From: an uncultured Pseudobdellovibrionaceae bacterium
GTDB lineage: Bacteria; Bdellovibrionota; FAC87; UBA2466
Direction: 5' to 3'
DNA: 64,000 nucleotides
NCBI GenBank assembly: GCA_964604555.1
Contig: CAZRZK010000001.1
Coordinates: 205,991-269,990 of the forward strand
Positions 23,331 to 38,690 of the stretch are shown piece by piece. Below the pieces are notes generated by a model that saw only the letters and a list, made by a program, of their open reading frames with translations, had not been told where the DNA came from and searched no databases. A program made the translations under genes and the position numbers. Every line of letters starts with the position of its first letter. Within the stretch, counting starts at the first letter, position 1.

Positions 23331-24959
23331 TTGCAGAGGGAGCGGGTGGGTATGCCTATTCTAGGTTTATTCACGATATTAGTGCTGCTTTCATTCTGGA
23401 TCGCCCCCTGGGGAAACTTCCCCTTAAATGATGATTGGCAATACAGTCTGATTGCCCATCTCCTAGCGGTCGATGGGAAAGTGCGCTTGATCCTGCCGGT
23501 CGCTCCGTCGTTAGTGCTGCAATCCTATCTTGGGAGTTGGGTGATTCAGGGGTTTGGTTTCAATCACCTCTATTTGCGATTGCTCACCTTATTGATCTCG
23601 GCCATTTGGCTTGTCGCCATCGATTGGATTCTACGGGAGTTGCAAGTCGCTCCCCTTTTCAGATTTTTGGCAGGACTGTTGGTCATTCTTAACCCACTCT
23701 TTGTCCATGTTGCTTTAAGTTTTATGACGGAACCGTATGGTTTTGCTTTTGCGACCTTAGGGGTGGCCTTTTGGTTTTATGGACGTCGTTCTTCCCATTC
23801 CTGGATCTTCTACAATATAGGGGCGATTTTATTGGGCTTGTCCTTTTGGGTTCGGCAATTGTGCGCGCTCTATTTTCCAGCGCTGATTTTTGCGGAGGCG
23901 GTTTTGGCTTGGCAAGAAAAGCAGTTTTGGAAAAGAGCGGTCCAGTGGGTCCTTCCGAGTCTCTTGTTTACTCTCCTTGTGGTTGGGTTTGCGGTTTGGG
24001 TCCGTCAGACCAAGAATTTAACGGTCGCCTTTGAAGGGAATCTGGTGGCCCTGTTGATTCCCAATGTTGGGAATTTTATTTTACAGGGTTTTGTATTCCT
24101 GGTTTATGGAGCCTTCTTTTTCTCTCCTTGGCTGGTGCAATGGAAAGTTCCCTTCCAAGAAAAAAAATACCGATGGGTGTTGGGTCTGCTTTTCGCCATT
24201 GCGATTGGGGTCTATATCGGCTCCACAAAAAGGTATCCGATGAAGGCCAATCTCCATGCGGTCTTTCCTTTTTTGGGAAATGTGATGAACCCTTCCGGAT
24301 TGGGGCCGATTACCCTGACCGATCGATATACTAATGATTATCCTACCCAGCTTCCCCATTTTACGCCCATATGGATATTGATTGAATGTCTTCTGATAAT
24401 CGTTGCCCTCAATTGGAAAAGGGTTCTGCCCGCAAAAAAACACTTTGATTTTGTTTCTCTTTTTGCTCTGGGTGCCATCGGCATTCAGTTCCTGATTATC
24501 ACTCAAGCCTTTCAGCAGGGGATTATCGATCGTTATTTGATGGGGTTTATATTACCCGCGCTTTTGCTCCTGGCCCGAATATCCCATTCCCTTCATTTTT
24601 CCTGGAAAAAGGCTGCCTTTCCGGTAATTTTTTTGGCGCTCTATTCCTGGGGTGGAGAATATGACTATTTCCGGTGGAATGAAGTCCGCTGGCAGCTGGT
24701 TTCACTGGCACAATCCCAATCGATTCCCATGGATCAGCTGGATGGGGGATTTGAGGTGAATGGCTCCCTCCATTTTCAAGACATCCACGCCGATCCCTAT
24801 TCTGATCCCCTTTGCGGCCCGCAGAAAAGTTGGTTCTGCGGAGATCTGAAATATGGCATTGGCTGGGAACCCCTTTCCAGTCGGGTAATTCTAGAATCCC
24901 GCAAGGTGAACTCTCTCTGGGTCAACTACCCCGAGATTTTTCTCTATTCACAAAGGTAA
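23331..24959 (+). CDS. Polytopic inner-membrane protein, GT-C-like (ArnT/PMT-like) glycosyltransferase fold candidate
   Basis: 542 aa, at least 11 predicted TM helices, extracytoplasmic loop motif near N-terminus (NDDWQY); weak resemblance only. Confidence 0.4.
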   Translation: MQRERVGMPILGLFTILVLLSFWIAPWGNFPLNDDWQYSLIAHLLAVDGKVRLILPVAPSLVLQSYLGSWVIQGFGFNHLYLRLLTLLISAIWLVAIDWILRELQVAPLFRFLAGLLVILNPLFVHVALSFMTEPYGFAFATLGVAFWFYGRRSSHSWIFYNIGAILLGLSFWVRQLCALYFPALIFAEAVLAWQEKQFWKRAVQWVLPSLLFTLLVVGFAVWVRQTKNLTVAFEGNLVALLIPNVGNFILQGFVFLVYGAFFFSPWLVQWKVPFQEKKYRWVLGLLFAIAIGVYIGSTKRYPMKANLHAVFPFLGNVMNPSGLGPITLTDRYTNDYPTQLPHFTPIWILIECLLIIVALNWKRVLPAKKHFDFVSLFALGAIGIQFLIITQAFQQGIIDRYLMGFILPALLLLARISHSLHFSWKKAAFPVIFLALYSWGGEYDYFRWNEVRWQLVSLAQSQSIPMDQLDGGFEVNGSLHFQDIHADPYSDPLCGPQKSWFCGDLKYGIGWEPLSSRVILESRKVNSLWVNYPEIFLYSQR

Positions 24960-26636
24960 ATTGCCCCTCTTTGCGATCGCTTCAAGAAGTCCGGGCAGAG
25001 TGAATGTTTTGCGAGGGGTGGAGAGCTGTTTCTTGAGCTCGGTGATCACCTTCTCGTCAGTATTGATCTTTCTTGCCCAGGACAAAAAATCGATGTAGCC
25101 AGGCAGTTCGCCGAATTCATTTTTGAATGATTGGGTGAGTTGTTGCGGAGTAAAGTAACTGCGATCATGGTGGCACATCAGGCACATGTCGGCATGGGCG
25201 TGAGTGGTGATTCCTTTACCGGGCTGTTTTTCTTCGATCGTAAAATAGATCCCTGGAAAGAGGGTCTTTACTTTTCCTGTATCCATATGAATTTCATAGG
25301 AGAGGCCGATAAAACCACGTCCCATATGATCCAACTCTTTTACTTCCACTCGCACTCGCATGGCATCTTGCTGCGAGATTGGCTGGAATCGAATCATTCC
25401 ATTTTTTAAAGAGGCAAGATCCAACTCGAAGAAAAAGATAATGGAGATCAATCGAGATTGGACTTTTGAAAGCCAAACCACCCGCAATCCGGCGGCATCA
25501 TCTTGACTCGTCTCATATTTTCCTTGATGCCGTTCCTTGGGATCGGTAAAGGTCTGGTAACTGACGACGGCTAGGGGATCTTTGAGAGCATAGAAAAGGG
25601 CCGGGAGGATTTCCTTTTCCAATCCCTCTTGGAATTTTTGGAAAGATTGCACCGCTTGGGGCCATTCCCGTTCCCTGAATTTTTTAAACTCATTCCAGGA
25701 ATCGGCCTCACGTTCTTTATATTGCTTCCAGGAGATCTCTTTTCCGGGAGTGTATTGGAATGAAGAGGTAGGCAAAGTGGGGTCCTGCTTTTTCCAGGCT
25801 ATTTCACCTCCGAAGGTCAGATCCAGGGGAATGGCCATTTCTTCGTCCGATTCTTTGAATTGCACCCAGACTCGATAGTTCCCCTCCTTACTTACCTCAA
25901 GTGGGGCCTGAAGGAGCTGGATTCCCTTCTCTTTCCAGAGTTTTTCGGCCTCTTCGCGCGTCTTTTTTGAAAGGGTGTGGGCATGTCCACCGGGATGGAG
26001 GATATCCATCGCATGGGCATGTTCAAAAATTCGGCCATCTTGAGAGATCAAAATAATGTGGGCCGGTTCTCCGAGAAGGGGCTGGAGTTGAAATGCTTTT
26101 TTATCTAGGCGTTGTAATTCGATGGTAGTGGGGTTGGCCCAACCTGCTATGAGTGAGGCATCGATTCTAATTTTAGCCTCTCTTTGAAGGACGCTTCCTC
26201 TTTTCGACTCCTGAAAGGGTTTTATTTTTACCCCCGGTTTTCCCTCTTCAACAGTGATGAGTGCATTCGCCGCAAAAGTAGTTTGGGTCTCTTTGAGAGT
26301 GCCTTGAACCCAAAGATAATAGTTTCCTTTCGATTCGAGGGTGATGGGCAGAGTCCAATTTCCCTTTTCATCGCATGTAGGATGGAGATGTTGAAAAATC
26401 TCTAACGAAGTGTCGAATAAAAAAGCGTGGAGTTTGTACTGGTGAACTTTTTCAAGTTTTTCCAGGGGGACGATCTCTTCGTCTATTTTGTTTATCAGTT
26501 TAAAGGAGAGTTGCGCGGGGGCCGATTTGATCTTCCGTCCTTTTGGGAAGAAAAACTCAACCGGGGATTCCCCCTCCACGTGGGCAAAGAGAACGATTGG
26601 AAAGAGAATGAGATTAAGGATCCACAGCTTCAGCAC
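24948..26636 (-). CDS. Secreted protein with two tandem His-rich modules and a C-terminal CxxCH motif (last gene of six-gene operon)
   Basis: Signal peptide; repeated HxH...HP...GNY(Y/R)(L/V)WVQ pattern twice; HAHADMCLMCHHDRSYF contains CLMCH heme-c-type motif. Confidence 0.5.
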   Translation of the reverse strand: MLKLWILNLILFPIVLFAHVEGESPVEFFFPKGRKIKSAPAQLSFKLINKIDEEIVPLEKLEKVHQYKLHAFLFDTSLEIFQHLHPTCDEKGNWTLPITLESKGNYYLWVQGTLKETQTTFAANALITVEEGKPGVKIKPFQESKRGSVLQREAKIRIDASLIAGWANPTTIELQRLDKKAFQLQPLLGEPAHIILISQDGRIFEHAHAMDILHPGGHAHTLSKKTREEAEKLWKEKGIQLLQAPLEVSKEGNYRVWVQFKESDEEMAIPLDLTFGGEIAWKKQDPTLPTSSFQYTPGKEISWKQYKEREADSWNEFKKFREREWPQAVQSFQKFQEGLEKEILPALFYALKDPLAVVSYQTFTDPKERHQGKYETSQDDAAGLRVVWLSKVQSRLISIIFFFELDLASLKNGMIRFQPISQQDAMRVRVEVKELDHMGRGFIGLSYEIHMDTGKVKTLFPGIYFTIEEKQPGKGITTHAHADMCLMCHHDRSYFTPQQLTQSFKNEFGELPGYIDFLSWARKINTDEKVITELKKQLSTPRKTFTLPGLLEAIAKRGNLPL

Positions 26637-27258
26637 TTAACACCTTCCCCGATGTCGCCTCTAGTTTGATGCGAATCAATTTGGTTTCTTTGTTGGATCG
26701 AATATCTACTACTGCCGTTGTTGTCTTATCTTGGCTCTCTTTTTTCAGGGTGGCACTGTGAAAATCATTTTTATATGGAAGAAAACTCTCTTTTTTATCC
26801 CGATTATCGATAATCACGTGCAGCGCCTGTCGGGTAAGCGCAGAGGCATGCCAGCGTTTATTGGGCCAAGTCGGGGCTTCTCTCTTTTCATTTTTAATGT
26901 CAGAAACCACTCCTTTGTCATCTTTATCATCGTAAACCGGTTCCCCGGTATTTTTTAAAAGGACGGTCAATGTATTGGGTTGTTCCTTATCAGCCACAAA
27001 GGTGGAAAGGACATATTTGTATCCCACCCCAGCCTTTTTCTCCTCTTCGGCTGGATTGAGCCGCACCAACTTTTGGAACCCGGTCTTATAAAAAGCTTTA
27101 ATCTCTCCCACAATCGAAAGCTTTTCCATCAGGTGTAGCGCAAAGTCGGCTGCCTGATCGGAAGTGGCCGGAGACCCATCAGGCGCACGGGTATCGGGAT
27201 TCTCTTCGGAATAGAGGAGCCCTGAAAAAAGAAACAGGGCCAAAAGAAGTGGCTTCAT
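26614..27258 (-). CDS. Hypothetical secreted protein (operon member)
   Basis: Signal peptide MKPLLLALFLFSGLLYS; start overlaps upstream gene stop (ATGA). Confidence 0.45.
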   Translation of the reverse strand: MKPLLLALFLFSGLLYSEENPDTRAPDGSPATSDQAADFALHLMEKLSIVGEIKAFYKTGFQKLVRLNPAEEEKKAGVGYKYVLSTFVADKEQPNTLTVLLKNTGEPVYDDKDDKGVVSDIKNEKREAPTWPNKRWHASALTRQALHVIIDNRDKKESFLPYKNDFHSATLKKESQDKTTTAVVDIRSNKETKLIRIKLEATSGKVLSAEAVDP

Positions 27259-27647
27259 TCGGTTGCTCCTACCGGGAAGATGGGAATATCCTTGAGATCC
27301 ACTTTTCCGGAATCGATTTTCTGTTGGATGATATCCCGCAATGCCTCAGTGCCTTTCACCCTTGCTTTGCTAGTTTTTGCATAGGCGGCAGCTACCACCT
27401 CTTCACGTTGTGCTAATTGCAAGGCTTCCAGCGATCCCGATCCCCTTTGGTAAAGGTCCTCAGCTCTTTTTCGAATTTTAACTAAAATTTCATGGCTTTT
27501 TTCCCATCGCTCTTGGTTGGCTATAGCCACCTCTACTTGCGCTTTGTAGAGTTTAATGAAGGGATTATCTTCATCGGCACGCATTTTTTGGTGGGGAATG
27601 AGAATTCCTGCAGCTAAGAATAAAGCAATGATGGCCGCCTTTTTCAC
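27255..27647 (-). CDS. Hypothetical secreted helical protein (operon member)
   Basis: Signal peptide MKKAAIIALFLAAGILIP; coiled-coil-like; ATGA overlap both sides. Confidence 0.45.
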   Translation of the reverse strand: MKKAAIIALFLAAGILIPHQKMRADEDNPFIKLYKAQVEVAIANQERWEKSHEILVKIRKRAEDLYQRGSGSLEALQLAQREEVVAAAYAKTSKARVKGTEALRDIIQQKIDSGKVDLKDIPIFPVGATE

Positions 27648-28702
27648 TTTTTCTCCTTTAGCCTAGGTTTCAATTCTTCCAATGGGCAATTACTAGAGAA
27701 ATAATGCTGCATTGGATTTAAAATCAGGTTATGCGTAAAAAACCTTCCTTGATGAATGAGCTCGTCTCCGTCTGGGACCTCTTCGGCCGATAAAAGATCG
27801 GAAAGAATGTCATGCAGCAGATGGAGATTATCGAACACCACCGCAATCCGAGCGAAAAGCAGGGGATCCTTTTCGCTTCCCTTATAATAAGTAAATTTTC
27901 TGGCCGAGCTTTTCATTACCGGCATGCCGATTGCAAAATTAAGGCGACGAGGCAAGTTTTGAACTTTCTTTTCAAATTCCTTCACCACCGATTTTACTTG
28001 AGTAACTTTCATTTCCTTGCTTTCGGCAATCAGGGCGTCATAAAGCGCCATCTGGAACCAATGGTAGGTCCAGATGAGATCATTCATGAATGGAAATGTC
28101 TCGCTGAAAGTTTTAGAGAAGGTCACTCCTTCCGTTTTTAAATATTTATCTGAAGTGTCGATCTGAGGAATGAATTTGAGATCATCCATCATTGTCATGG
28201 AAAGGCATTTATCGGTAATCACGTAGAGGGGGTATTGCTTCTTATATTCTGTGAAAATGGCTTCGGCGCGCTCAATCATCTGTTTCGGTTCGGTGTGGGT
28301 CGCCATCACGTCATATAAGAATTGGTGGAGGTAGTGGGACCAATCGAAAACATTCACCGTCTTGCTAAAAAGACGGGAATAGTGGGGAGCGATGTCCTCC
28401 TCGAAGGATTTCGTGGCAAAATGGCGATTCAGTAATTTTTGGATATCGATCACTAATTCTTTATCAAGGGCTAAAAGCTGTTCCTTAGAGTATTTCTTCT
28501 TACTCTCTTTAATCTGAAGGAGTCGGGAGTAAAGCAGAGCATGGCCATGATCAAAGGCGAAAAGGTAGCTTTGCGCTTTTTGAAACTCCTCATCATTTGA
28601 GAGTTTGGAGAAGGAGTAGCGTTCAGGAGGCATCCCTTCCCAGATCACCCCCGCCTGTGCAAGCGAAGTCCAAATGACCAGGGATGAGATGAGCAATCTC
28701 AT
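27644..28702 (-). CDS. Hypothetical secreted protein (operon member)
   Basis: Signal peptide MRLLISSLVIWTSLAQA; 352 aa; ATGA overlaps. Confidence 0.45.
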   Translation of the reverse strand: MRLLISSLVIWTSLAQAGVIWEGMPPERYSFSKLSNDEEFQKAQSYLFAFDHGHALLYSRLLQIKESKKKYSKEQLLALDKELVIDIQKLLNRHFATKSFEEDIAPHYSRLFSKTVNVFDWSHYLHQFLYDVMATHTEPKQMIERAEAIFTEYKKQYPLYVITDKCLSMTMMDDLKFIPQIDTSDKYLKTEGVTFSKTFSETFPFMNDLIWTYHWFQMALYDALIAESKEMKVTQVKSVVKEFEKKVQNLPRRLNFAIGMPVMKSSARKFTYYKGSEKDPLLFARIAVVFDNLHLLHDILSDLLSAEEVPDGDELIHQGRFFTHNLILNPMQHYFSSNCPLEELKPRLKEKK

Positions 28703-29349
28703 TTCAAATCTCCATGCGGATGGTAAGAGAGTGCATAGGTATTGTGGATCCAGCGAAATTGGGGAAGGATCGGAGTTTTTGAAGCTAGATCCCGGATCTG
28801 GAATTCAAGAAAGGTCTCCCAGAGGTCATCTGAAACCGTGTAGTTCAGTGGATTAGTGTTAAATGGCCCCTTACATTCCGGATCATTAGCTCCCAGTTTT
28901 ACCATCAATCGGAAACGAGGGTAGAGAGCCGGTTTGGTCTTGTGAACATCCAAATTATCCTGTCCATCCACAAAGACGCAATCGAGGGGAACTTTCGACG
29001 AAGTTTCTCCTTTGACTTGAATATAGGAACCACTCTCATGAAGCAAAACCTTATCGGTCCATATGCGAACATTCGCCGTCAGAGGGGTGGCCATCTTAAA
29101 GAACTTTAGATTCTTTAAGGCCTCTTCGGTCCATTTGATCTCATATTCTACCTCAACCGGTTTCATTCCCGGCGGAATCCAGCGAAATTTTTTATGGGTC
29201 GGAAGGTTGGCAGTGATTCGACGATAAAATTCCTCTTTAGGCCGTTCCTTTGGGTTGGAAACGATCTCCTCATTGGGAAGCTCTATTGGGATGTAACGGT
29301 CTTCAGTGAAACCCTGAACTGAGAAAAATAGGAGGAAAAAGAGGCTCAT
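28699..29349 (-). CDS. Hypothetical secreted protein (operon member)
   Basis: Signal-like N-terminus MSLFFLLFFSVQGF; ATGA overlaps. Confidence 0.45.
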   Translation of the reverse strand: MSLFFLLFFSVQGFTEDRYIPIELPNEEIVSNPKERPKEEFYRRITANLPTHKKFRWIPPGMKPVEVEYEIKWTEEALKNLKFFKMATPLTANVRIWTDKVLLHESGSYIQVKGETSSKVPLDCVFVDGQDNLDVHKTKPALYPRFRLMVKLGANDPECKGPFNTNPLNYTVSDDLWETFLEFQIRDLASKTPILPQFRWIHNTYALSYHPHGDLK

Positions 29350-29684
29350 TCTTTGTTTGCTCCTTCTTTAATCCAATCGTAAATGGTCTGTTTGTCCCGA
29401 TCGGAAATCGGATCATAGCGCTTGTCCCTAGGGGGCATGGGATCATCCTCATCGATCAGTTTTAAATAGAGGGTGCTGTCTTTGGGTTTACCCGGTTTTA
29501 CCATCCCCAGTTTTTTGCTGAGGAGGGTTTCGTAATCCTTTAAAGGGCGTAATTTGGCCTCCCCTTTTTCGGAATGGCAGTCAAAGCACTGGTATTTGAT
29601 AAAAAGTTTCTGGATATCAGAAAAATTGGGTGCTGCCACAACTAATGGGCAAGCAAGCCCAAACCAAACCATCAAGCCCCGCAT
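29346..29684 (-). CDS. Small secreted c-type cytochrome domain protein (PSCyt1-like: CxxCH ... MPP ... WI..GA)
   Basis: Signal peptide; CFDCH heme-binding motif, followed by LRPLKDYETLL...KPGKPKDSTLYLKLIDEDDPMPP...IYDWIKEGA matching the planctomycete-type cytochrome c module; first gene of operon. Confidence 0.6.
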   Translation of the reverse strand: MRGLMVWFGLACPLVVAAPNFSDIQKLFIKYQCFDCHSEKGEAKLRPLKDYETLLSKKLGMVKPGKPKDSTLYLKLIDEDDPMPPRDKRYDPISDRDKQTIYDWIKEGANKE

Positions 29685-29720
29685 TAATGCACCGTATCAT
29701 TGTGAATAAAAAACGCAATA

Positions 29721-29790
29721 CCTAAGAAGGTTCATTGTGGTTAAGCCAGAATAGATCTTTTACATGACTGGTCAGCAGTAAAGTACGGGG
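29721..29790. repeat. Left 70 bp imperfect direct repeat bounding the TA islet; decayed duplicate of the SDR gene 3' end
   Basis: cctaagaaggttc...agatcttttacatgactggtcagcag... about 78% identical to 32561..32630; reverse-complement translation DLFWLNHNEPS* mimics SDR C-terminus DLFLFRLREPS*. Confidence 0.6.
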
Positions 29791-30218
29791 ACTGAATTTC
29801 GTACCTGTGGCAAACGAAAATCAGACTGGTTATAAGGCCATCACACTTGAATTGTTGGCATCAGCGTTGCTCTTCTAATCGCAGTGCCGAGATGGATTAG
29901 AATAGAAACGAAGGGTATGAAGCCTCGTTCAAAAAAAGGAAGATTTACCGAGCGATAAATGATGAAACAACCACCGAATTAAAGCTTGTTCGAATAATTG
30001 ATGAATCAGGATACTCTTACCTTTTTTAGAAGAAAAGTTTCCAGGGGCGAGCTCTGGCTGGCTTCTTCTCGGTGTAGTCATAAACCTTGCAATGGCAGTA
30101 ACCATTCTTTTGGGACTATGGCGGGTATTCGTCCCAAAGATTCTCTAAATTCTAAAGACATTCTTGCAAAGAATCCACGCTTGACCGATTCCTGATCTTT
30201 TAGGTGGGTTGGCCATTA

Positions 30219-30482
30219 TCATCCTATTTTGAGATTAAGCCCTTCGATACGAAGCTGATCCTGCAAGGCTAACTTTACAAGCCATTCGGGTGGCAGTTTA
30301 AGCGTTTTGGCTACCGACTTAGCCAGCCTAATACTGATATTGAATCGGTTTTTCTCGATATCGCACAACCTTTGCTTAGAAATGCCGAGTAGTTTGGCCA
30401 TCTCCGTTTGATTGAGCCCTTCCCCCTGACGGTGCACATTAATAAATTCTCCGAATGAAAGATCCTTTGTCCTAATAGTCAT
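30219..30482 (-). CDS. HigA-like antitoxin, XRE-family HTH
   Basis: 87 aa; HTH LNQTEMAKLLGISKQRLCDIEKN; overlaps upstream toxin gene by 11 nt; toxin-first arrangement typical of HigBA. Confidence 0.8.
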   Translation of the reverse strand: MTIRTKDLSFGEFINVHRQGEGLNQTEMAKLLGISKQRLCDIEKNRFNISIRLAKSVAKTLKLPPEWLVKLALQDQLRIEGLNLKIG

Positions 30483-30828
30483 GTTTAGTTACCTCAAGAA
30501 CCTCAATTTGATCAAAACCTGACTGACGATAAATGATTCGATAAGACCTGGAAAGTCGGACTGACCTCTGACCAAACCGCTTTCCCATCAAGGGCTCATC
30601 ATGAAACCCTTTGTACTTTCGAGCCTCTAGTAATCCTAAATATTGAATCATATCTACCCAATACCCGAACTTTTTGGCGATGTGCTGAGGCACACGTCTT
30701 AAAGATTTCTGTGCTCCTCCGGAGACTCTTATCTCCACGCAAACAACTCCTTTATAGTACGTATTTTTTACGTACATGTCAATATCTGAAAGTGATTTTG
30801 CAGGTTTTGCGCCTAGACTTAAGGGCAT
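30472..30828 (-). CDS. HigB-like toxin (RelE/ParE superfamily, plasmid-maintenance-system killer type)
   Basis: 118 aa; ...KRFGQRSVRLSRSYRIIYRQSGFDQIEVLEVTKHDY typical HigB C-terminus. Confidence 0.8.
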   Translation of the reverse strand: MPLSLGAKPAKSLSDIDMYVKNTYYKGVVCVEIRVSGGAQKSLRRVPQHIAKKFGYWVDMIQYLGLLEARKYKGFHDEPLMGKRFGQRSVRLSRSYRIIYRQSGFDQIEVLEVTKHDY

Positions 30829-31065
30829 GAACTAGCCGAAGGAGTTCAAATATTGGACTGCCCTGGCTAGTTTTCAGTCTCGAAAACCTTCTTTGTTTTA
30901 TATGAAGAAACTAGTTTGGTGCCAACGGCACGCCTATGGCAAGGAATGGCCATTAATTCGAAATGCTCACATGACTGATTCTCGGTACCTAGAGACCAGT
31001 AAATGGTCTCTTTCAGTTATCCCCATGCTTCAAAATTTGGCATCGACATTGCTCTGCTGGACATT

Positions 31066-31332
31066 GTGCCAAAGATATCCGAATTCTACGGGATCACTAT
31101 TTGAATGTACTGGTTCGACACCCAGAAACATAAGAAACCTCATTTTCATGCACGCTATCAAGGCCTGGAAGCTGTCTTTGACCTGGATGGAAATCCAATA
31201 AAAGGGGTGCTTAGCCCTACTGCAGCTCGTCTTATCAAGCAATGGTGCCAGAAGAATTCTCATGATATCTATGAGGCATGGGAAAAAGCAAAACAAGGCA
31301 AGGAACTCCCGTGGATAAGTCCCCTGAAGTAA
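31066..31332 (+). pseudogene. DUF4160-family gene interrupted by in-frame TGA at codon 13 (31102..31104); ORF-track CDS 31105..31332 is the downstream part
   Basis: Same frame: GTG-PKISEFYGITI-TGA-MYWFDTQKHKKPHFHARYQGLEA... matches DUF4160 N-terminal consensus MPxIsxFYGIxIxMY..D..PPHFHARY across the stop. Confidence 0.5.
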
Positions 31333-31346
31333 TAGTCAGTTTCGAG

Positions 31347-31589
31347 ATGCCGAGCTATGGTCTGGTTATTATCGATACCTCGAACAGGTTGCGATATCAC
31401 GCAGATTTAAGCAGCTTGTCCCAAACCTACTGTTATCCGAAGAATCTGGAACAGTGGAAAAAAGCCTCTATTGACTCTTATGGCTTAGCCCTTGTCTGGC
31501 AAAGTCGGTTTGAAGTTCACATCGATCAAATTATTGGCCTTGCGTCCAATACTGAGTCGCTCGGTAGCGCAAAGAAACATACCGGATAG
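31347..31589 (+). CDS. DUF2442-family protein (usual partner of DUF4160; putative TA-like pair)
   Basis: Start at internal Met MPSYGLVIIDTSNRL...; ORF-track 31278 start would overlap DUF4160 gene. Confidence 0.55.
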   Translation: MPSYGLVIIDTSNRLRYHADLSSLSQTYCYPKNLEQWKKASIDSYGLALVWQSRFEVHIDQIIGLASNTESLGSAKKHTG

Positions 31590-31845
31590 AATCTGTCTCA
31601 GGTTCGATCTTCTTTCTTTAGTCATATTGGCCATTTAATCCCGAGGTCCAGACTTCGGCTTTTGGAGACCAGGAATTGGTCTCCATTGGTTTGCGGTCGC
31701 GCTTGAATTAATGGTCCCGATATTGCTTCAAATGTAGGCAAGTGCGGACAATCTGAGGAATTCCCAGCAGGATTGCCAGGTTATCCGACAAGAGTTCCAG
31801 TTGCTAATACCAACTATAATTGGTATCATGTAGGGGAGAGAGTCG

Positions 31846-32022
31846 ATGCCGAAGTCGGGCAAGGAGATCTTGCGTTTGTATGAGAAAGAGGGCTGGAGAG
31901 TACTCCGGCAGAGGGGCAGCCACGTTATTGTTGGGAAGGGTGGCGAACGCGAAACCATCCCGATGCATAAGGAGCTAAAGAAAGGACTTGAGAGGTCGCT
32001 GCTCAAGAGGATTGGAAAATGA
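31846..32022 (+). CDS. hicA: HicA toxin (mRNA interferase, YcfA-like)
   Basis: 58 aa not in ORF track: MPKSGKEILRLYEKEGWRVLRQRGSHVIVGKGGERETIPMHKELKKGLERSLLKRIGK; stop overlaps hicB start (ATGA). Confidence 0.8.
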   Translation: MPKSGKEILRLYEKEGWRVLRQRGSHVIVGKGGERETIPMHKELKKGLERSLLKRIGK

Positions 32023-32450
32023 AATACCACTTCAAAATACATAAAGAAAGGCGTGGCTTTTGGGCAGAGTGCATTGAGCTTAAAGGATGCCAAACCCAGG
32101 CCGAATCTAAGGCGTCCTTATTGGAAAATATGAGAGAGGCTCTTAATCTTTACCTAGATGAGCCAGCTGACTCTAAGGCCATCTTTTCTCTTCCAAAAAA
32201 AAGCTGTCTTGGAAGAAATGTAGTGGCAGTTCCGGTTGACCCTAAAGTTGCTCTGGCATTTCTTCTGCGAAGACATCGACTCGAGAGGGGACTCACTCAG
32301 ACGCAGGCAGCAGAACAACTTGGGCTGCGAGGGTTGTATTCCTATCAGCGCCTCGAAAATTCTAAGACCGCGAATCCGGAATTCGAAACGATCATACGGA
32401 TCAAACGCGTGTTTCCTGAACTAGACATCGATGAGCTCTTGGCAGCATGA
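32019..32450 (+). CDS. hicB: HicB antitoxin with C-terminal XRE-type HTH
   Basis: N-terminal HicB/UPF0150 fold MKYHFKIHKERRGFWAECIELKGCQTQAESKASLLENMREALNLYLDE; C-terminal HTH GLTQTQAAEQLGL. Confidence 0.8.
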   Translation: MKYHFKIHKERRGFWAECIELKGCQTQAESKASLLENMREALNLYLDEPADSKAIFSLPKKSCLGRNVVAVPVDPKVALAFLLRRHRLERGLTQTQAAEQLGLRGLYSYQRLENSKTANPEFETIIRIKRVFPELDIDELLAA

Positions 32451-32560
32451 AACTTCCGCCGCTGTATATGTAAAAACGTGATCCTCCGGAAATTGACTTG
32501 TGTTGCAAAGATTGGCCAATGTTTAATACGACTGTTTACACATTCTAAAATTTGCCTAAG

Positions 32561-32630
32561 CCTAAGAAGGTTCTCTGAGTCTAAACAAAAAGAGATCTTT
32601 TACATTACTGGTCAGTAGCAGGCGTCGGGG
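32561..32630. repeat. Right 70 bp direct repeat (overlaps 3' end of SDR gene)
   Basis: Partner of 29721..29790; contains intact SDR C-terminal codons and stop. Confidence 0.6.
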
Positions 32631-33374
32631 AATAAAGCGGTGAAATCGGAGCATTAGTTTTCCATTTAAGGTGGGGAAGATCTCCAGCTGTTTTCGATTG
32701 AGACCTGCCAAAATCTCTTTGGCCACCTTTTCAGGGGTAGAGATAAAAGGGGCCATCCAATTGGGAAGGCCTCCCTTTTGCCCGCGTTCAATCATGGAGG
32801 TGTCGACAAAGCCGGGAGAGGCGAGCACCAGTTTTACGGGTGAATCTTTTAATTGGAGCTCTTGTCGTAGGGCCCGCGTGAAGCCGACGACGGCATGCTT
32901 GCTGGCTGAATAGGAGGTGAGGTAGGGACAGCTGATATGGCCTGCCACCGAGGCAATATTCACGATGATCCCTTTCCCTTGTTGTTCCATCTTCTCAATA
33001 GCAAGACGAGTTCCTAGGACCACTCCCCCTAAGTTGATCCGAAGGGTGGTTTCATATTCTTCGAAACTCTGCCGCATGAAATCGCCTTTGCCACTGATAC
33101 CGGCATTGTTGATCCATAGAAAGATAGGTTTGGCTTGTCCCGATATTTTTGTGATCGCCTCTTTCATCTGGGTGGGATTAGCAATATCAACGGCAAGCGC
33201 GCTGAAGGAATGGCCTTCTTTAGAGGCGGCGTCTTCTAAAGCAGCCAAATCTTTTTGATTCCTATCGAGTCCCCAAACATGGGCGCCCAGATTGAGGCAC
33301 TGGAGGGTGAGGCATTTTCCAATTCCACCAGCCGCTCCGGTGATCACCACTGTTTTTCCCATAAGTGATTTCAT
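32562..33374 (-). CDS. Short-chain dehydrogenase/reductase (SDR) family oxidoreductase
   Basis: TGAAGGIGKCL cofactor motif, NNAG, catalytic YxxxK (YSASK); 270 aa. Confidence 0.85.
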   Translation of the reverse strand: MKSLMGKTVVITGAAGGIGKCLTLQCLNLGAHVWGLDRNQKDLAALEDAASKEGHSFSALAVDIANPTQMKEAITKISGQAKPIFLWINNAGISGKGDFMRQSFEEYETTLRINLGGVVLGTRLAIEKMEQQGKGIIVNIASVAGHISCPYLTSYSASKHAVVGFTRALRQELQLKDSPVKLVLASPGFVDTSMIERGQKGGLPNWMAPFISTPEKVAKEILAGLNRKQLEIFPTLNGKLMLRFHRFIPRRLLLTSNVKDLFLFRLREPS

Positions 33375-35079: not shown

Positions 35080-35272
35080 AACAGGATGAGATTACCCAGA
35101 TTTGGCTGGAAAAGTCATGAATCTAGAAAATGGGGAGCCGCTCCCAGCAAAAATGGGAACACATTCTATCGATTCTATTTAAGCAGTAATTGTGCCTGAG
35201 AGTAATATTTGCAGCCATGCATCCGTCTTTTAAAACAATCCACTCTCTGCTATTAGCCGGCACGGAGTAACA

Positions 35273-36598
35273 ATGAGAAAATGGATATTGGGCTTGGTTT
35301 TCTTAAACCCCTTTTTGATGGCGCCGTTATCGATAGCTGAAGATCGTCAGGTGGTTCGAGTAGCAGCGCTGAATAATGAAGATGCGCCTATCTTAATTGC
35401 AGAGCATGCGGTTAAAAAAAGAGTCGTTGACCATACAAATTTGTATTTGCGGTTTTCCAATGGAGAGGCATTTGCCACTCTTTCCGGATTGGATCTCAGT
35501 CGGCGAATGTACGGGATGCACATTCCAGATACATCCGATATTTACCTCCATGACATGATCGCCCGGCTGGAGGGCGGGTATTTTCTATTGTTGGATTTGA
35601 AGCAACGGGACATCAGAAAACCAAAGTGGTGGACATTACTGATCGCTTTTGATCCCCATGGCAAAATGGATGGGGGATTCGGTTCAGGAGGAATCCAGCT
35701 CCTCAAAGGCTTTGATCCGGAAGACCACTCCATGAAAATGGCAATGACATTGGATGAAAACCGTTTAGTGGTGGCGGAAACGAATCATTATAATCAGCAA
35801 CACTATATTTTTTCCTATAGGCGGGAGAGCACGCGTTTATATCATCTTAATCCCATCGATAATAGTTTAACGGAAAAATTCCTCCCGCAGCTCGATTTCG
35901 GTCTTCCAGATCATTTCAAAGCGCGGTGTGCTTCGGTGAAAACCTTTAATTACATGGATTCGGAAGTTGTTTTAGAAGAGGTTCAAGGAATCGTATTGCT
36001 GCACAGTGGAGAGATCGGATTGGTGACCCGTTTAACGTACCCCTTTGACAAGCACGAGATAAATGAGCTCATGCCCATCCGGGTTCGGTTATTCAATCGG
36101 CAGGGGACTGCTTTGGTTGAGGAATTTGGCAAAAATGGGATTTTAACGGAGTATGGAAATAGGGATTCGAAATTGCCTTCGGGCGGACAGCGAAGTTTTA
36201 CGGTGCAATTTGAGCAAGGGGGATCGGGAATTGTATTTGAAGTTTACACTTATTTCACTCCCCGTTCCCGCTATGAAGCCTTTGCAAAGGGGGAAAGAAT
36301 TCCGGCCGACTGGCTCAATATCATTAGGGTGGACAAAGATGCCGGTCGAAAGGATGTCTATTCAGGGCCAAACAAAGAGGTTTTGGATTCGGTGCTTGCG
36401 AATGTTGTGTCTTTGTATCCCAAGATCGAGGAGGGGAAAAACATTAATCCCGTTCCATTCCGAGCGGTGATGACGTTAGGAAGATCCTATTTCGATGAAC
36501 CGGCAATCATAGGAACTGTAAATCCCTCACCCTATGCAGCAGTAGATGCGCATTCGGGCTGTCGAGAGATCCTCAATCATGCCCTTCAGAATCCCTAA
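35273..36598 (+). CDS. Hypothetical secreted protein
   Basis: Signal peptide MRKWILGLVFLNPFLMAPLSIA; 441 aa; no domain recognised. Confidence 0.5.
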   Translation: MRKWILGLVFLNPFLMAPLSIAEDRQVVRVAALNNEDAPILIAEHAVKKRVVDHTNLYLRFSNGEAFATLSGLDLSRRMYGMHIPDTSDIYLHDMIARLEGGYFLLLDLKQRDIRKPKWWTLLIAFDPHGKMDGGFGSGGIQLLKGFDPEDHSMKMAMTLDENRLVVAETNHYNQQHYIFSYRRESTRLYHLNPIDNSLTEKFLPQLDFGLPDHFKARCASVKTFNYMDSEVVLEEVQGIVLLHSGEIGLVTRLTYPFDKHEINELMPIRVRLFNRQGTALVEEFGKNGILTEYGNRDSKLPSGGQRSFTVQFEQGGSGIVFEVYTYFTPRSRYEAFAKGERIPADWLNIIRVDKDAGRKDVYSGPNKEVLDSVLANVVSLYPKIEEGKNINPVPFRAVMTLGRSYFDEPAIIGTVNPSPYAAVDAHSGCREILNHALQNP

Positions 36599-36607
36599 AA
36601 ATAGCTT

Positions 36608-38479
36608 TTATCTCCGGACCTTTGGCTCCAGCCACCAGTGGATCATCTTGTCCAAGTTTTCAATTTCACTATGTGGAATATCTTCGTTCAGCGCTTTGAG
36701 GACCATCGTCTCGAATTCCTCCCGTTCCTTTGGATTCCGCATCCAATAGTTACTGAATTCGGTCTGGATCGTCTTTCGGTATTCAATGAAATGGAGATCC
36801 ACTTCGGGGGTAAAAGCGGTCGTTTCCACGATGAATCGGGCCATTGTTTCCGCAGCGATCACTTTTGCAAAGGGATCCGAATTAGAAAGCTCCATATAGG
36901 AACGCAGTTGGATGAGAGCGGGTCTCAGACTGGTGCGGACTTGGTTGGAGTTCCATTCCCCCGTCTCGGCATTGGCAGAAATAACCTGTCTCAGTCGGTT
37001 GAAAGTGGCTTCAAAGTGCTCTTCAAAGACATTCCTTCTATTTCCATTATTATAGGCATTTTTTGAAGTTCCACTTTTAACAAAGGCATCTACCGGCATT
37101 GCGTAGCCGACCAAGAAGGGGGCGGTAAGAAAAGAGATGATAGAGACGGCAATCGTTGCCCCGGCACCTATTGCACTATCAGTTGTGCTTAGAACCACGA
37201 CTCCATTAGTGGCAGAGACGGTGAAAGCTGAAAGTCCAAAGTAAGAGACCGCCTTTCGGGTTGGGATAATGGATCGGAGCTGTTCGGCAATCGGCTTAGT
37301 GATACGAACCAGGACTTCATGCAATTCCTTCTGATTGCAGTGGGTTCCGCATTCTTTCAGCGATTTATCGGCGATTTCTAAAGAATGTTTTGAGATCGCA
37401 CCACGAAAATACCGGCGAACGAACCATCGATCTTCTTGCTTAGCGAGATCTTCGAGCATCTTGGTGATGGAAATGACTGTTTGAAAGGATTCGGTCAGGT
37501 GGGCACTGAACTTCTCAGAGGCGCAGCCCTCTCCACAACGTTTTTTTGCCCTCTCGACTGCGACATCGGTCAACTTGTCGATTGAATTACGCAACCATCT
37601 TTTTAAGAAATATCCTTCCTCTTTTGAAACCAACTGCTGGATCTGCTTTTTTGCTTCTAAGATGACAGCTAAATGGTTGAGAAGTTCTTTAGAAAGCTCC
37701 TCGGGACCACAAGAAGCTCCACATTTTTGCAAAGAACGTTGGAGGGCTATCTTTGCCCCTCTTTCTAATGGCCTCCAAGTCCACCATCTCCACCAGCTGA
37801 TATGAATCGAGTTTTTTTCGAGTTCCTTTTTAATAGAATTGCCGAGGTCCCGAAGCGTTTTGAAGGATTCGGCCAAATAGGAACCAAGTTGCTCTGGCGG
37901 GCAGGTGGGGCCACACTTCTCAAGGGCCCGGTCTAAAGCAGTGTCAGCGACACTTTCTAAGGTATTACGGAACCATTGAGAGGAGAGGGAACGGCTGCCA
38001 CGGGCCTCTTGAACCACCTTTTCCAACTCTGTTTTCACCGCAATTGCCTGAAGAACAGCCGCGCGGAGGTGATTTTGGAACTCTGCTGCCGAACAGTTAG
38101 GGCCACAATACCTTATTGCCCTCTGTATCAGCTGATCGGTAATGGAATCGAGAGAATTACGGAGCCAACGTCGGTAATCCAGATCCTCCGTAGCGGTACG
38201 GATTTCACGATCCAGCAACGCAAGGGTTTTGAAGGAGTCCTTGAGCTGATCTTCAAATTCCTTAGGGGTAGGGTCCTCTCCACAGATTTTACGGGTGGCC
38301 TCGATGACCTCATTAGCTCGTTGATAAAGGCGATTTCTTTCGGATCGGCTTTCGGCAATTTCATAAATGGTGCGATCGGCCAGCATTTTGGCGGTTCTGG
38401 CGCAGACATATTCGATTGCATGGAGAGAGTTCTGGAGTAGGAGGGAAAAACCAAGGACTAAAAATAATTTTTTGCTCAC
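36608..38479 (-). CDS. Secreted repeat protein: six ~55 aa helical repeats each with CGxxC (one degenerate) followed by TM segment and about 170 aa C-terminal domain; unknown function
   Basis: Signal peptide MSKKLFLVLGFSLLLQNSLHA; repeats ...RWLRNS(L/I)DxxTDxxxxRAxxxCG(PN/PT/AS/EG/TH)Cxx(E/K)(F/L)xxxLxxSFxTL...; hydrophobic stretch VVVLSTTDSAIGAGATIAVSIISFLTAPFLVGYA. Confidence 0.55.
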   Translation of the reverse strand: MSKKLFLVLGFSLLLQNSLHAIEYVCARTAKMLADRTIYEIAESRSERNRLYQRANEVIEATRKICGEDPTPKEFEDQLKDSFKTLALLDREIRTATEDLDYRRWLRNSLDSITDQLIQRAIRYCGPNCSAAEFQNHLRAAVLQAIAVKTELEKVVQEARGSRSLSSQWFRNTLESVADTALDRALEKCGPTCPPEQLGSYLAESFKTLRDLGNSIKKELEKNSIHISWWRWWTWRPLERGAKIALQRSLQKCGASCGPEELSKELLNHLAVILEAKKQIQQLVSKEEGYFLKRWLRNSIDKLTDVAVERAKKRCGEGCASEKFSAHLTESFQTVISITKMLEDLAKQEDRWFVRRYFRGAISKHSLEIADKSLKECGTHCNQKELHEVLVRITKPIAEQLRSIIPTRKAVSYFGLSAFTVSATNGVVVLSTTDSAIGAGATIAVSIISFLTAPFLVGYAMPVDAFVKSGTSKNAYNNGNRRNVFEEHFEATFNRLRQVISANAETGEWNSNQVRTSLRPALIQLRSYMELSNSDPFAKVIAAETMARFIVETTAFTPEVDLHFIEYRKTIQTEFSNYWMRNPKEREEFETMVLKALNEDIPHSEIENLDKMIHWWLEPKVRR

Positions 38480-38690
38480 TTCTTCTCAACACCTCACTGG
38501 TTGGAACCCAGAGCCTCGGATTGGATTCGGTGAGTCTGGGCCGTTTTGGCGCGTATTCTCTCGAATCCACTCCGCGATTCTGGGTAAAAAATGCATAAAA
38601 CATAATTTGTGACTCGGTGCAATAGTAAAAAATAGTTTTTTTAGATTTTGGTTAGGGAAAAAAATCTCTCGCTTTTTATCGACGTATTTT

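Follow-up and report, generated by a model that had tools for sequence, protein, structure and literature searches.

How did three toxin-antitoxin (TA) gene pairs come to lie between a short-chain dehydrogenase (SDR) gene and a cytochrome gene, and why do copies of the SDR 3' end flank them on both sides? We addressed this question in a stretch of 64,000 nucleotides from an uncultured Pseudobdellovibrionaceae bacterium (contig CAZRZK010000001.1, positions 205,991 to 269,990), which is referred to here as the window. The original prediction, made from the sequence alone, described a mobile islet of 2.8 kb that is bounded by direct repeats of 70 bp and that had inserted by site-specific recombination into the 3' end of the SDR gene, bringing a replacement end with it. 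The geometry and the insertion were confirmed in our analysis, while the islet as a single unit and the direction of the replacement could not be upheld. We consider it moderately likely that the locus is a decayed islet without an integrase which arose by Campbell-type integration into the SDR 3' end, and which resembles both a cis-mobilizable element (CIME) and a duplicated gene end of the e14/icd type.

The duplicated end of the SDR gene

The SDR gene (32562-33374, minus strand; Pfam adh_short, 162.6 bits) carries the insertion site at its 3' end. Pairwise alignment of both repeat regions revealed an ungapped direct repeat of 76 nt at 29721-29796 and 32561-32636, in which 57 of the 76 positions are identical (75%). 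The predicted repeat of 70 bp and about 78% identity is thus real, its length and identity being corrected by the alignment; over the 70 nt proposed initially, 53 positions agree (76%). The right copy (32561-32636, minus strand) is the authentic and functional 3' end of the gene as had been proposed, since the open reading frame (ORF) 32562-33374 ends in FIPRRLLLTSNVKDLFLFRLREPS followed by the stop codon at 32562-32564. Its tail resembles the SDR family consensus DLLLLRKxPP. The left copy (29721-29796, minus strand) is a pseudo-3' end which comprises 24 codons and a stop codon (29722-29724) and reads FSPRTLLLTSHVKDLFWLNHNEPS. A tblastn search with the SDR protein matched 25 C-terminal residues in frame at this copy (E 3.8e-6) and detected no further SDR sequence in 29000-32560. 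Moreover, the duplicated segment corresponds to the 25 codons at the end of SDR, and its end point lies one base beyond the stop codon. Since the left copy encodes Asn in place of the family-invariant Arg265, which is Arg in 26 homologues, it is the copy without function at present. The start codon of the cytochrome gene follows the orphan stop codon at a distance of only 37 nt. At the right copy we also observed that the hexamer CCTAAG is tandemly doubled just outside the repeat (32555-32566, CCTAAGCCTAAG). This doubling creates an extra in-frame TAG two codons past the SDR stop, and the left copy has a single hexamer.

A similarity of this kind could in principle be due to chance or to a dispersed repeat family, and the latter had been named beforehand as an observation that would speak against an integration. 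Therefore, the right copy was compared position by position with either strand of the window, a scan which covered the 64 kb rather than the whole genome. It found 57 of 76 matches at 29721 and a maximum of 36 of 76 elsewhere. Within the window, a 13-nt core (CCTAAGAAGGTTC) and a 23-nt core (AGATCTTTTACATNACTGGTCAG) are present at the two repeat sites only, a count which was reached by none of the shuffles. In addition, the left copy agrees with the SDR tail both in its reading frame and in the position of the stop codon. Both chance and a dispersed repeat are effectively refuted within the window by these results, and we regard this explanation as practically negligible. The 22-base core of the repeat had no match in viral or metagenome contig collections.

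Comparison with related loci allowed us to ask whether the islet is an insertion. In four SDR lineages the genes AurF, Abhydrolase, Peptidase_M24 and SDR are followed after 190-240 nt by a gene for a small c-type cytochrome, and no TA genes are located between SDR and cytochrome. In a fifth lineage CoA-transferase genes come after SDR. The window contains AurF, Abhydrolase, M24 and SDR of the same block with 50-61% amino-acid identity to the relatives, and its cytochrome gene takes the place of the cytochrome gene that follows SDR in these relatives. Because the relatives have SDR and then the cytochrome without TA genes, this gene order shows the islet as an insertion relative to them, in line with the synteny expected by the original prediction. 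The similarity of the cytochromes is weak, with 29% identity over 55 residues around the haem motif only (pairwise E 0.002), and the genes beyond the cytochrome are entirely different between the window and the relatives. The closest non-self homologues of the SDR protein share 57-59% identity, and a scan of genome contigs with this protein found relatives at 24-34% only. A comparison of the base composition, which had been suggested as a further check, gave a weak signal in the same direction: the GC content of the islet is lower than that of the window (0.444 vs 0.472) and falls into the lowest 11% of equal-sized windows.

Probable integration at the SDR gene and competing origins

We infer site-specific recombination as the mechanism behind this arrangement, together with the following order of events. 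A circular element would have integrated in Campbell fashion within the ~25 terminal codons of SDR, most likely through the action of a site-specific recombinase which was lost afterwards. It would have brought along its own version of the SDR end. Its integration would have left the right repeat on the gene and the orphan left repeat at the far side, beside the original downstream cytochrome. What remains today are att-like repeats around higBA-type, dhiTA-type and hicAB cassettes, one toxin gene of which is inactivated.

Similar arrangements have been described for decayed mobile elements. CIMEs are decayed remnants of ICEs (integrative and conjugative elements) or IMEs (integrative and mobilizable elements) which keep attL and attR and no longer possess genes for integration and transfer (PMC5704250). 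The islet is like a CIME in that it has repeats at the 3' end of a protein-coding gene, accessory cargo and no integration or transfer genes, and in that it is absent from this site in the relatives. However, it differs from CIMEs as nothing is left of the backbone of an ICE, IME or prophage that would reveal its origin, a cognate integrase is not known and the repeats are only 75% identical. At this identity they may no longer function as att sites. The second parallel is e14 in E. coli K-12, which is located between icd and icdC, a C-terminal pseudogene fragment (PMC13626634, citing Hill et al. 1989). As in e14, the gene continues into the inserted DNA and would end in a substitute 3' end, an orphan C-terminal fragment lies at the far border, and the changes between both ends are conservative and synonymous. 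In contrast to e14, which comprises ~15 kb, possesses a functional integrase and still excises (PMC13626634), the insert described here is 2.8 kb long, has no recombinase and is flanked by copies that are 25% different.

Several observations weigh against the integration of a circular element by site-specific recombination. As stated in the original prediction, no integrase remains: a Pfam search detected no integrase, recombinase, relaxase, excisionase or transfer domain in the ORFs or spacers of the islet. For the spacers, ten stop-free segments from the four of them were compared with Pfam at E values up to 10, and none of these segments matched a family. The left-end spacer (29797-30218, 422 nt) lies outside the higBA homology block, and its longest segment of 71 residues gave one non-credible match only in a phmmer search against 1.8 billion representatives. 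Because no remnant of an integrase, excisionase or transfer gene was found, we purely infer the recombinase. Moreover, the islet contained no ICE, IME or prophage remnant and neither repeat was flanked by an integrase gene. No related element or donor with the att sequence was found in viral, metagenome and plasmid collections, and the islet as a whole matched no plasmid in a blastn search. Among the SDR lineages examined, nothing was found integrated at this SDR site. The syntenic relatives themselves are distant (57-59% identity of the SDR protein), and the orthology of the cytochromes is weak. Besides, the longest exact runs between the two copies are 13 nt, so that a single long identical core is lacking. 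Finally, the synonymous excess between the copies is not significant over all 24 codons (p 0.067 if both copies are taken as neutral, p 0.40 if one is taken as freely drifting and the other as constrained, a combination with which the pattern is compatible), and the last five differing codons show no synonymous and seven non-synonymous changes.

Other searches of the spacers were negative as well. There was no Rfam match in 29300-32800, no excess of RNA structure on either strand of the left spacer (z -0.46 and -0.29), and no similarity of the spacers to other parts of the window or to the 85 fetched loci.

The missing integrase would also be accounted for by a RecA-dependent single crossover, in which circular DNA with the SDR 3' fragment of a related bacterium and TA genes had integrated and duplicated the shared segment. 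The resulting topology is identical to that of a site-specific integration, and the coding-like divergence of the copies would be explained likewise. However, the shared segment comprises only 76 nt, in which no exact run exceeds 13 nt today. This is very short for homologous recombination to be efficient, unless the majority of the differences arose later, and no donor sequence was found. We therefore regard a RecA-dependent origin as clearly improbable.

The divergence of the two gene ends was also analyzed. The 19 differences between the copies are distributed over codon positions 1, 2 and 3 as 4, 5 and 10. According to the Nei-Gojobori method, differences over 24 codons affect 8 of 17.5 synonymous and 11 of 54.5 non-synonymous sites, which corresponds to a dN/dS of ~0.34 (Fisher p 0.06). 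Within codons 1-16 of the duplicated segment they affect 8 of 12.5 synonymous vs 4 of 35.5 non-synonymous sites (Fisher p 0.0004). This part and the following five differing codons, which were picked post hoc with the data already seen, are heterogeneous (p 0.013). The synonymous excess in codons 1-16 is expected if the ends evolved as coding sequence in separate lineages. If the 3' end was replaced, as the original prediction assumes, the right copy beside the gene would have been imported, and the native end would be the left copy, which was displaced. The pattern of substitutions is no more than suggestive and neither confirms nor reverses this assignment. Thus, the left repeat, which had been taken for a drifted duplicate of the right one, is indeed a C-terminal fragment of SDR, but the proposed direction of descent is left undecided by the pattern.

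The synonymous divergence in codons 1-16 is close to saturation, and two functional paralogues of long standing would account for it equally well. Such a pair would have existed if the SDR gene or its end had been duplicated in tandem and the downstream copy had later been deleted or overwritten by accreting TA cassettes, all this without site-specific recombination. The absence of any trace of a recombinase is in agreement with this local duplication, as is the separate arrival of the TA modules (see below), by which the region behaves as an accretion spot. However, no relative examined has a tandem SDR pair, and nothing of SDR survives beyond the last 25 codons. The end of the segment one base past the stop codon is moreover typical of att-type duplications. 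Taken together, we consider a remnant of a local duplication unlikely, and integration into the SDR 3' end is the reading we prefer.

The three TA modules of the islet

The cargo was predicted to consist of HigB/HigA, DUF4160/DUF2442 and HicA/HicB pairs. Our annotation supports HigB/HigA, HicA/HicB and DUF4160, the gene of the latter being broken, and it retains DUF2442 at the level of the predicted fold only.

The higBA-type module (30216-30952, minus strand) was delimited by its 87% nucleotide identity to the related locus L084. The product of higB (30472-30738, minus strand) is a toxin of the RelE/ParE fold which matches Pfam ParE_toxin with 24.2-25.5 bits (cut-off 23) and misses the NCBIfam model RelE_StbE (27.6 bits, cut-off 27.9). 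The gene higA (30219-30482, minus strand) encodes a helix-turn-helix (HTH) antitoxin with matches to HTH_19 (40.6 bits) and HTH_3. The toxin gene comes first and overlaps the antitoxin gene by 11 nt, and a promoter-like sequence TTGACA-17-TACTAT is located upstream of higB at 30782-30754. In its gene order with a RelE/ParE toxin followed by an HTH antitoxin of the Xre type, in the overlap and in its domains, the pair corresponds to TA systems of the HigBA type, whereas the cut-off of the NCBIfam HigA equivalog is missed (20.7 bits, cut-off 47.7). Relatives of HigA share 87-90% amino-acid identity, and a scan of viral sequences with HigA gave no match. The relative in L084 is part of another cluster of small TA-like genes.

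The second module (31005-31593, plus strand), whose extent is given by 81% nucleotide identity to locus L082, is of the dhiTA type. DhiTA is an experimentally validated DUF4160/DUF2442 pair of Dickeya in which the toxin gene comes first (PMC8198452). The order, the sizes and the overlapping or abutting ORFs are alike in our module. However, the toxin gene contains a premature stop codon, the cut-off of NCBIfam DhiT is missed (64.9 bits, cut-off 100) and the partner falls outside DUF2442 by its sequence. The DUF4160 frame (31066-31332, plus strand) opens at GTG 31066 and is interrupted at codon 13 by an in-frame TGA (31102-31104) with an ATG directly after it, so that the downstream ORF is called at 31105-31332. 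When the stop codon was repaired, the Pfam DUF4160 score rose from 60.1 to 68.6 bits and the match spanned the whole profile. The relative in L082, which lies beside a gene for an FAD-binding oxidase, has Leu at the corresponding codon. TGA can be taken as a normal stop codon here because hicA and hicB both end in TGA. Judged from these features, the DUF4160 toxin gene is disrupted by a premature stop.

The partner gene (31311-31589, plus strand) matched no Pfam or NCBIfam model and lies outside Pfam DUF2442 by sequence; its product is predicted to be DUF2442-like (NE0471-like) by fold only. A search of PDB sequences with a profile of the partner gene returned a single match, which was rejected as spurious. 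Another relative (L083, 666-1048) has kept the partner gene, and its DUF4160 gene lacks the 5' half. With the TGA in the window and the loss of the toxin 5' half in L083, the toxin has thus been lost repeatedly while the putative antitoxin was retained.

The hicAB module (31806-32450, plus strand) is defined by 87% nucleotide identity to two related loci (L019 and L020). It consists of hicA (31846-32022, plus strand; HicA_toxin, 54.4 bits, cut-off 27) and a gene in the position of hicB (32019-32450, plus strand), which overlap by 4 nt, and a promoter-like site with a palindrome is present upstream of hicA at 31801-31829. The toxin gene followed by an overlapping HTH partner and the domains match HicAB systems, the partner being assigned here by its position and by its C-terminal HTH_31 or HTH_3 domain. 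Both hicAB relatives are located ~130 nt downstream of a tRNA-Asn gene. This tRNA gene (278-351 in L019, where hicAB spans 485-1129, and 652-725 in L020) follows a gene for a small GTPase-like protein, which appears MglA-like by eye. tRNA genes are another classic integration site. In L022 (1755-2954) we observed a relative of hicB with 71% identity followed by an ORF of 399 aa with a YMDD motif, which by eye resembles a reverse transcriptase.

The relatives of each module at 81-87% nucleotide identity are found in unrelated contexts, and the homology ends at the module borders, a few bases from the terminal stop codon on one side and 40-220 nt ahead of the first gene on its upstream side. The cargo is modular for this reason: on the sequence comparisons, it shows itself as three independent promoter-to-stop cassettes of separate origin. 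Accordingly, the original view of the islet as one mobile unit was not borne out. The window has no counterpart to the genes which flank the relatives of the TA modules. Relatives of the TA proteins are 85-90% identical, whereas none above 59% was found for the neighbouring housekeeping SDR. This gap in identity and the differing contexts suggest, without proving it, that the three cassettes were acquired independently by horizontal transfer. The occurrence of the same TA genes elsewhere without flanking repeats, which had been regarded as a possible objection to an islet, was found for single modules only; no direct repeats flank the modules in the short contigs L019, L082 and L084.

A further explanation would attribute a more active role to the locus. 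In this uncultured, deltaproteobacterium-like lineage the SDR end may be a live att site and the islet still cis-mobilizable by an unseen integrase, or bare TA cassettes may be delivered to the 3' ends of protein-coding and tRNA genes by an undescribed mechanism. We hold this to be very improbable. If it were true, the sharp borders of the modules and the position of hicAB beside tRNA-Asn would be entry points to the mechanism.

Neighbouring genes and significance of the locus

The gene for the small mono-haem c-type cytochrome on the left side of the islet (29346-29684, minus strand; Pfam PSCyt1, 28.8 bits) leads a tightly overlapping operon. On the minus strand of 24948-29684 it is followed by five overlapping or abutting ORFs of 216, 352, 130, 214 and 562 aa, and none of the five has a Pfam match. 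The genes found after the cytochrome in the relatives, which encode an SDF transporter, a methyltransferase and Peptidase_S51, are not present in the window. The promoter of the cytochrome-led operon had been placed at 29685-29720, directly against the left repeat. A consensus scan for sigma-70-type sites detected no promoter-like site on the minus strand in this interval or nearby and thus did not support this proposal.

A second non-syntenic insert was observed on the other side of the SDR gene. It comprises 3.6 kb (35080-38690) between AurF and Abhydrolase, which are adjacent in the relatives, and no direct repeat flanking it was found. The insert contains an ORF of 441 aa without a Pfam match (35273-36598, plus strand) and an ORF of 623 aa (36608-38479, minus strand) which has a weak match to the NACHT N-terminal helical domain (NNH1) only. 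The second insert could hold a defence-type gene.

In summary, the locus is an ordinary decayed genomic islet and reveals nothing new in principle. Its value lies first in the annotation of this genome, since the 3' end of the SDR gene can be marked as an integration site, the orphan gene-end fragment, which is otherwise open to miscalling, is explained and one disrupted toxin gene is identified. As a consequence of the islet, the downstream operon no longer adjoins the gene that once lay upstream of it. Moreover, the three TA operons represent clean, cassette-sized horizontal units with exact borders, and they could feed a survey of cassette movement.

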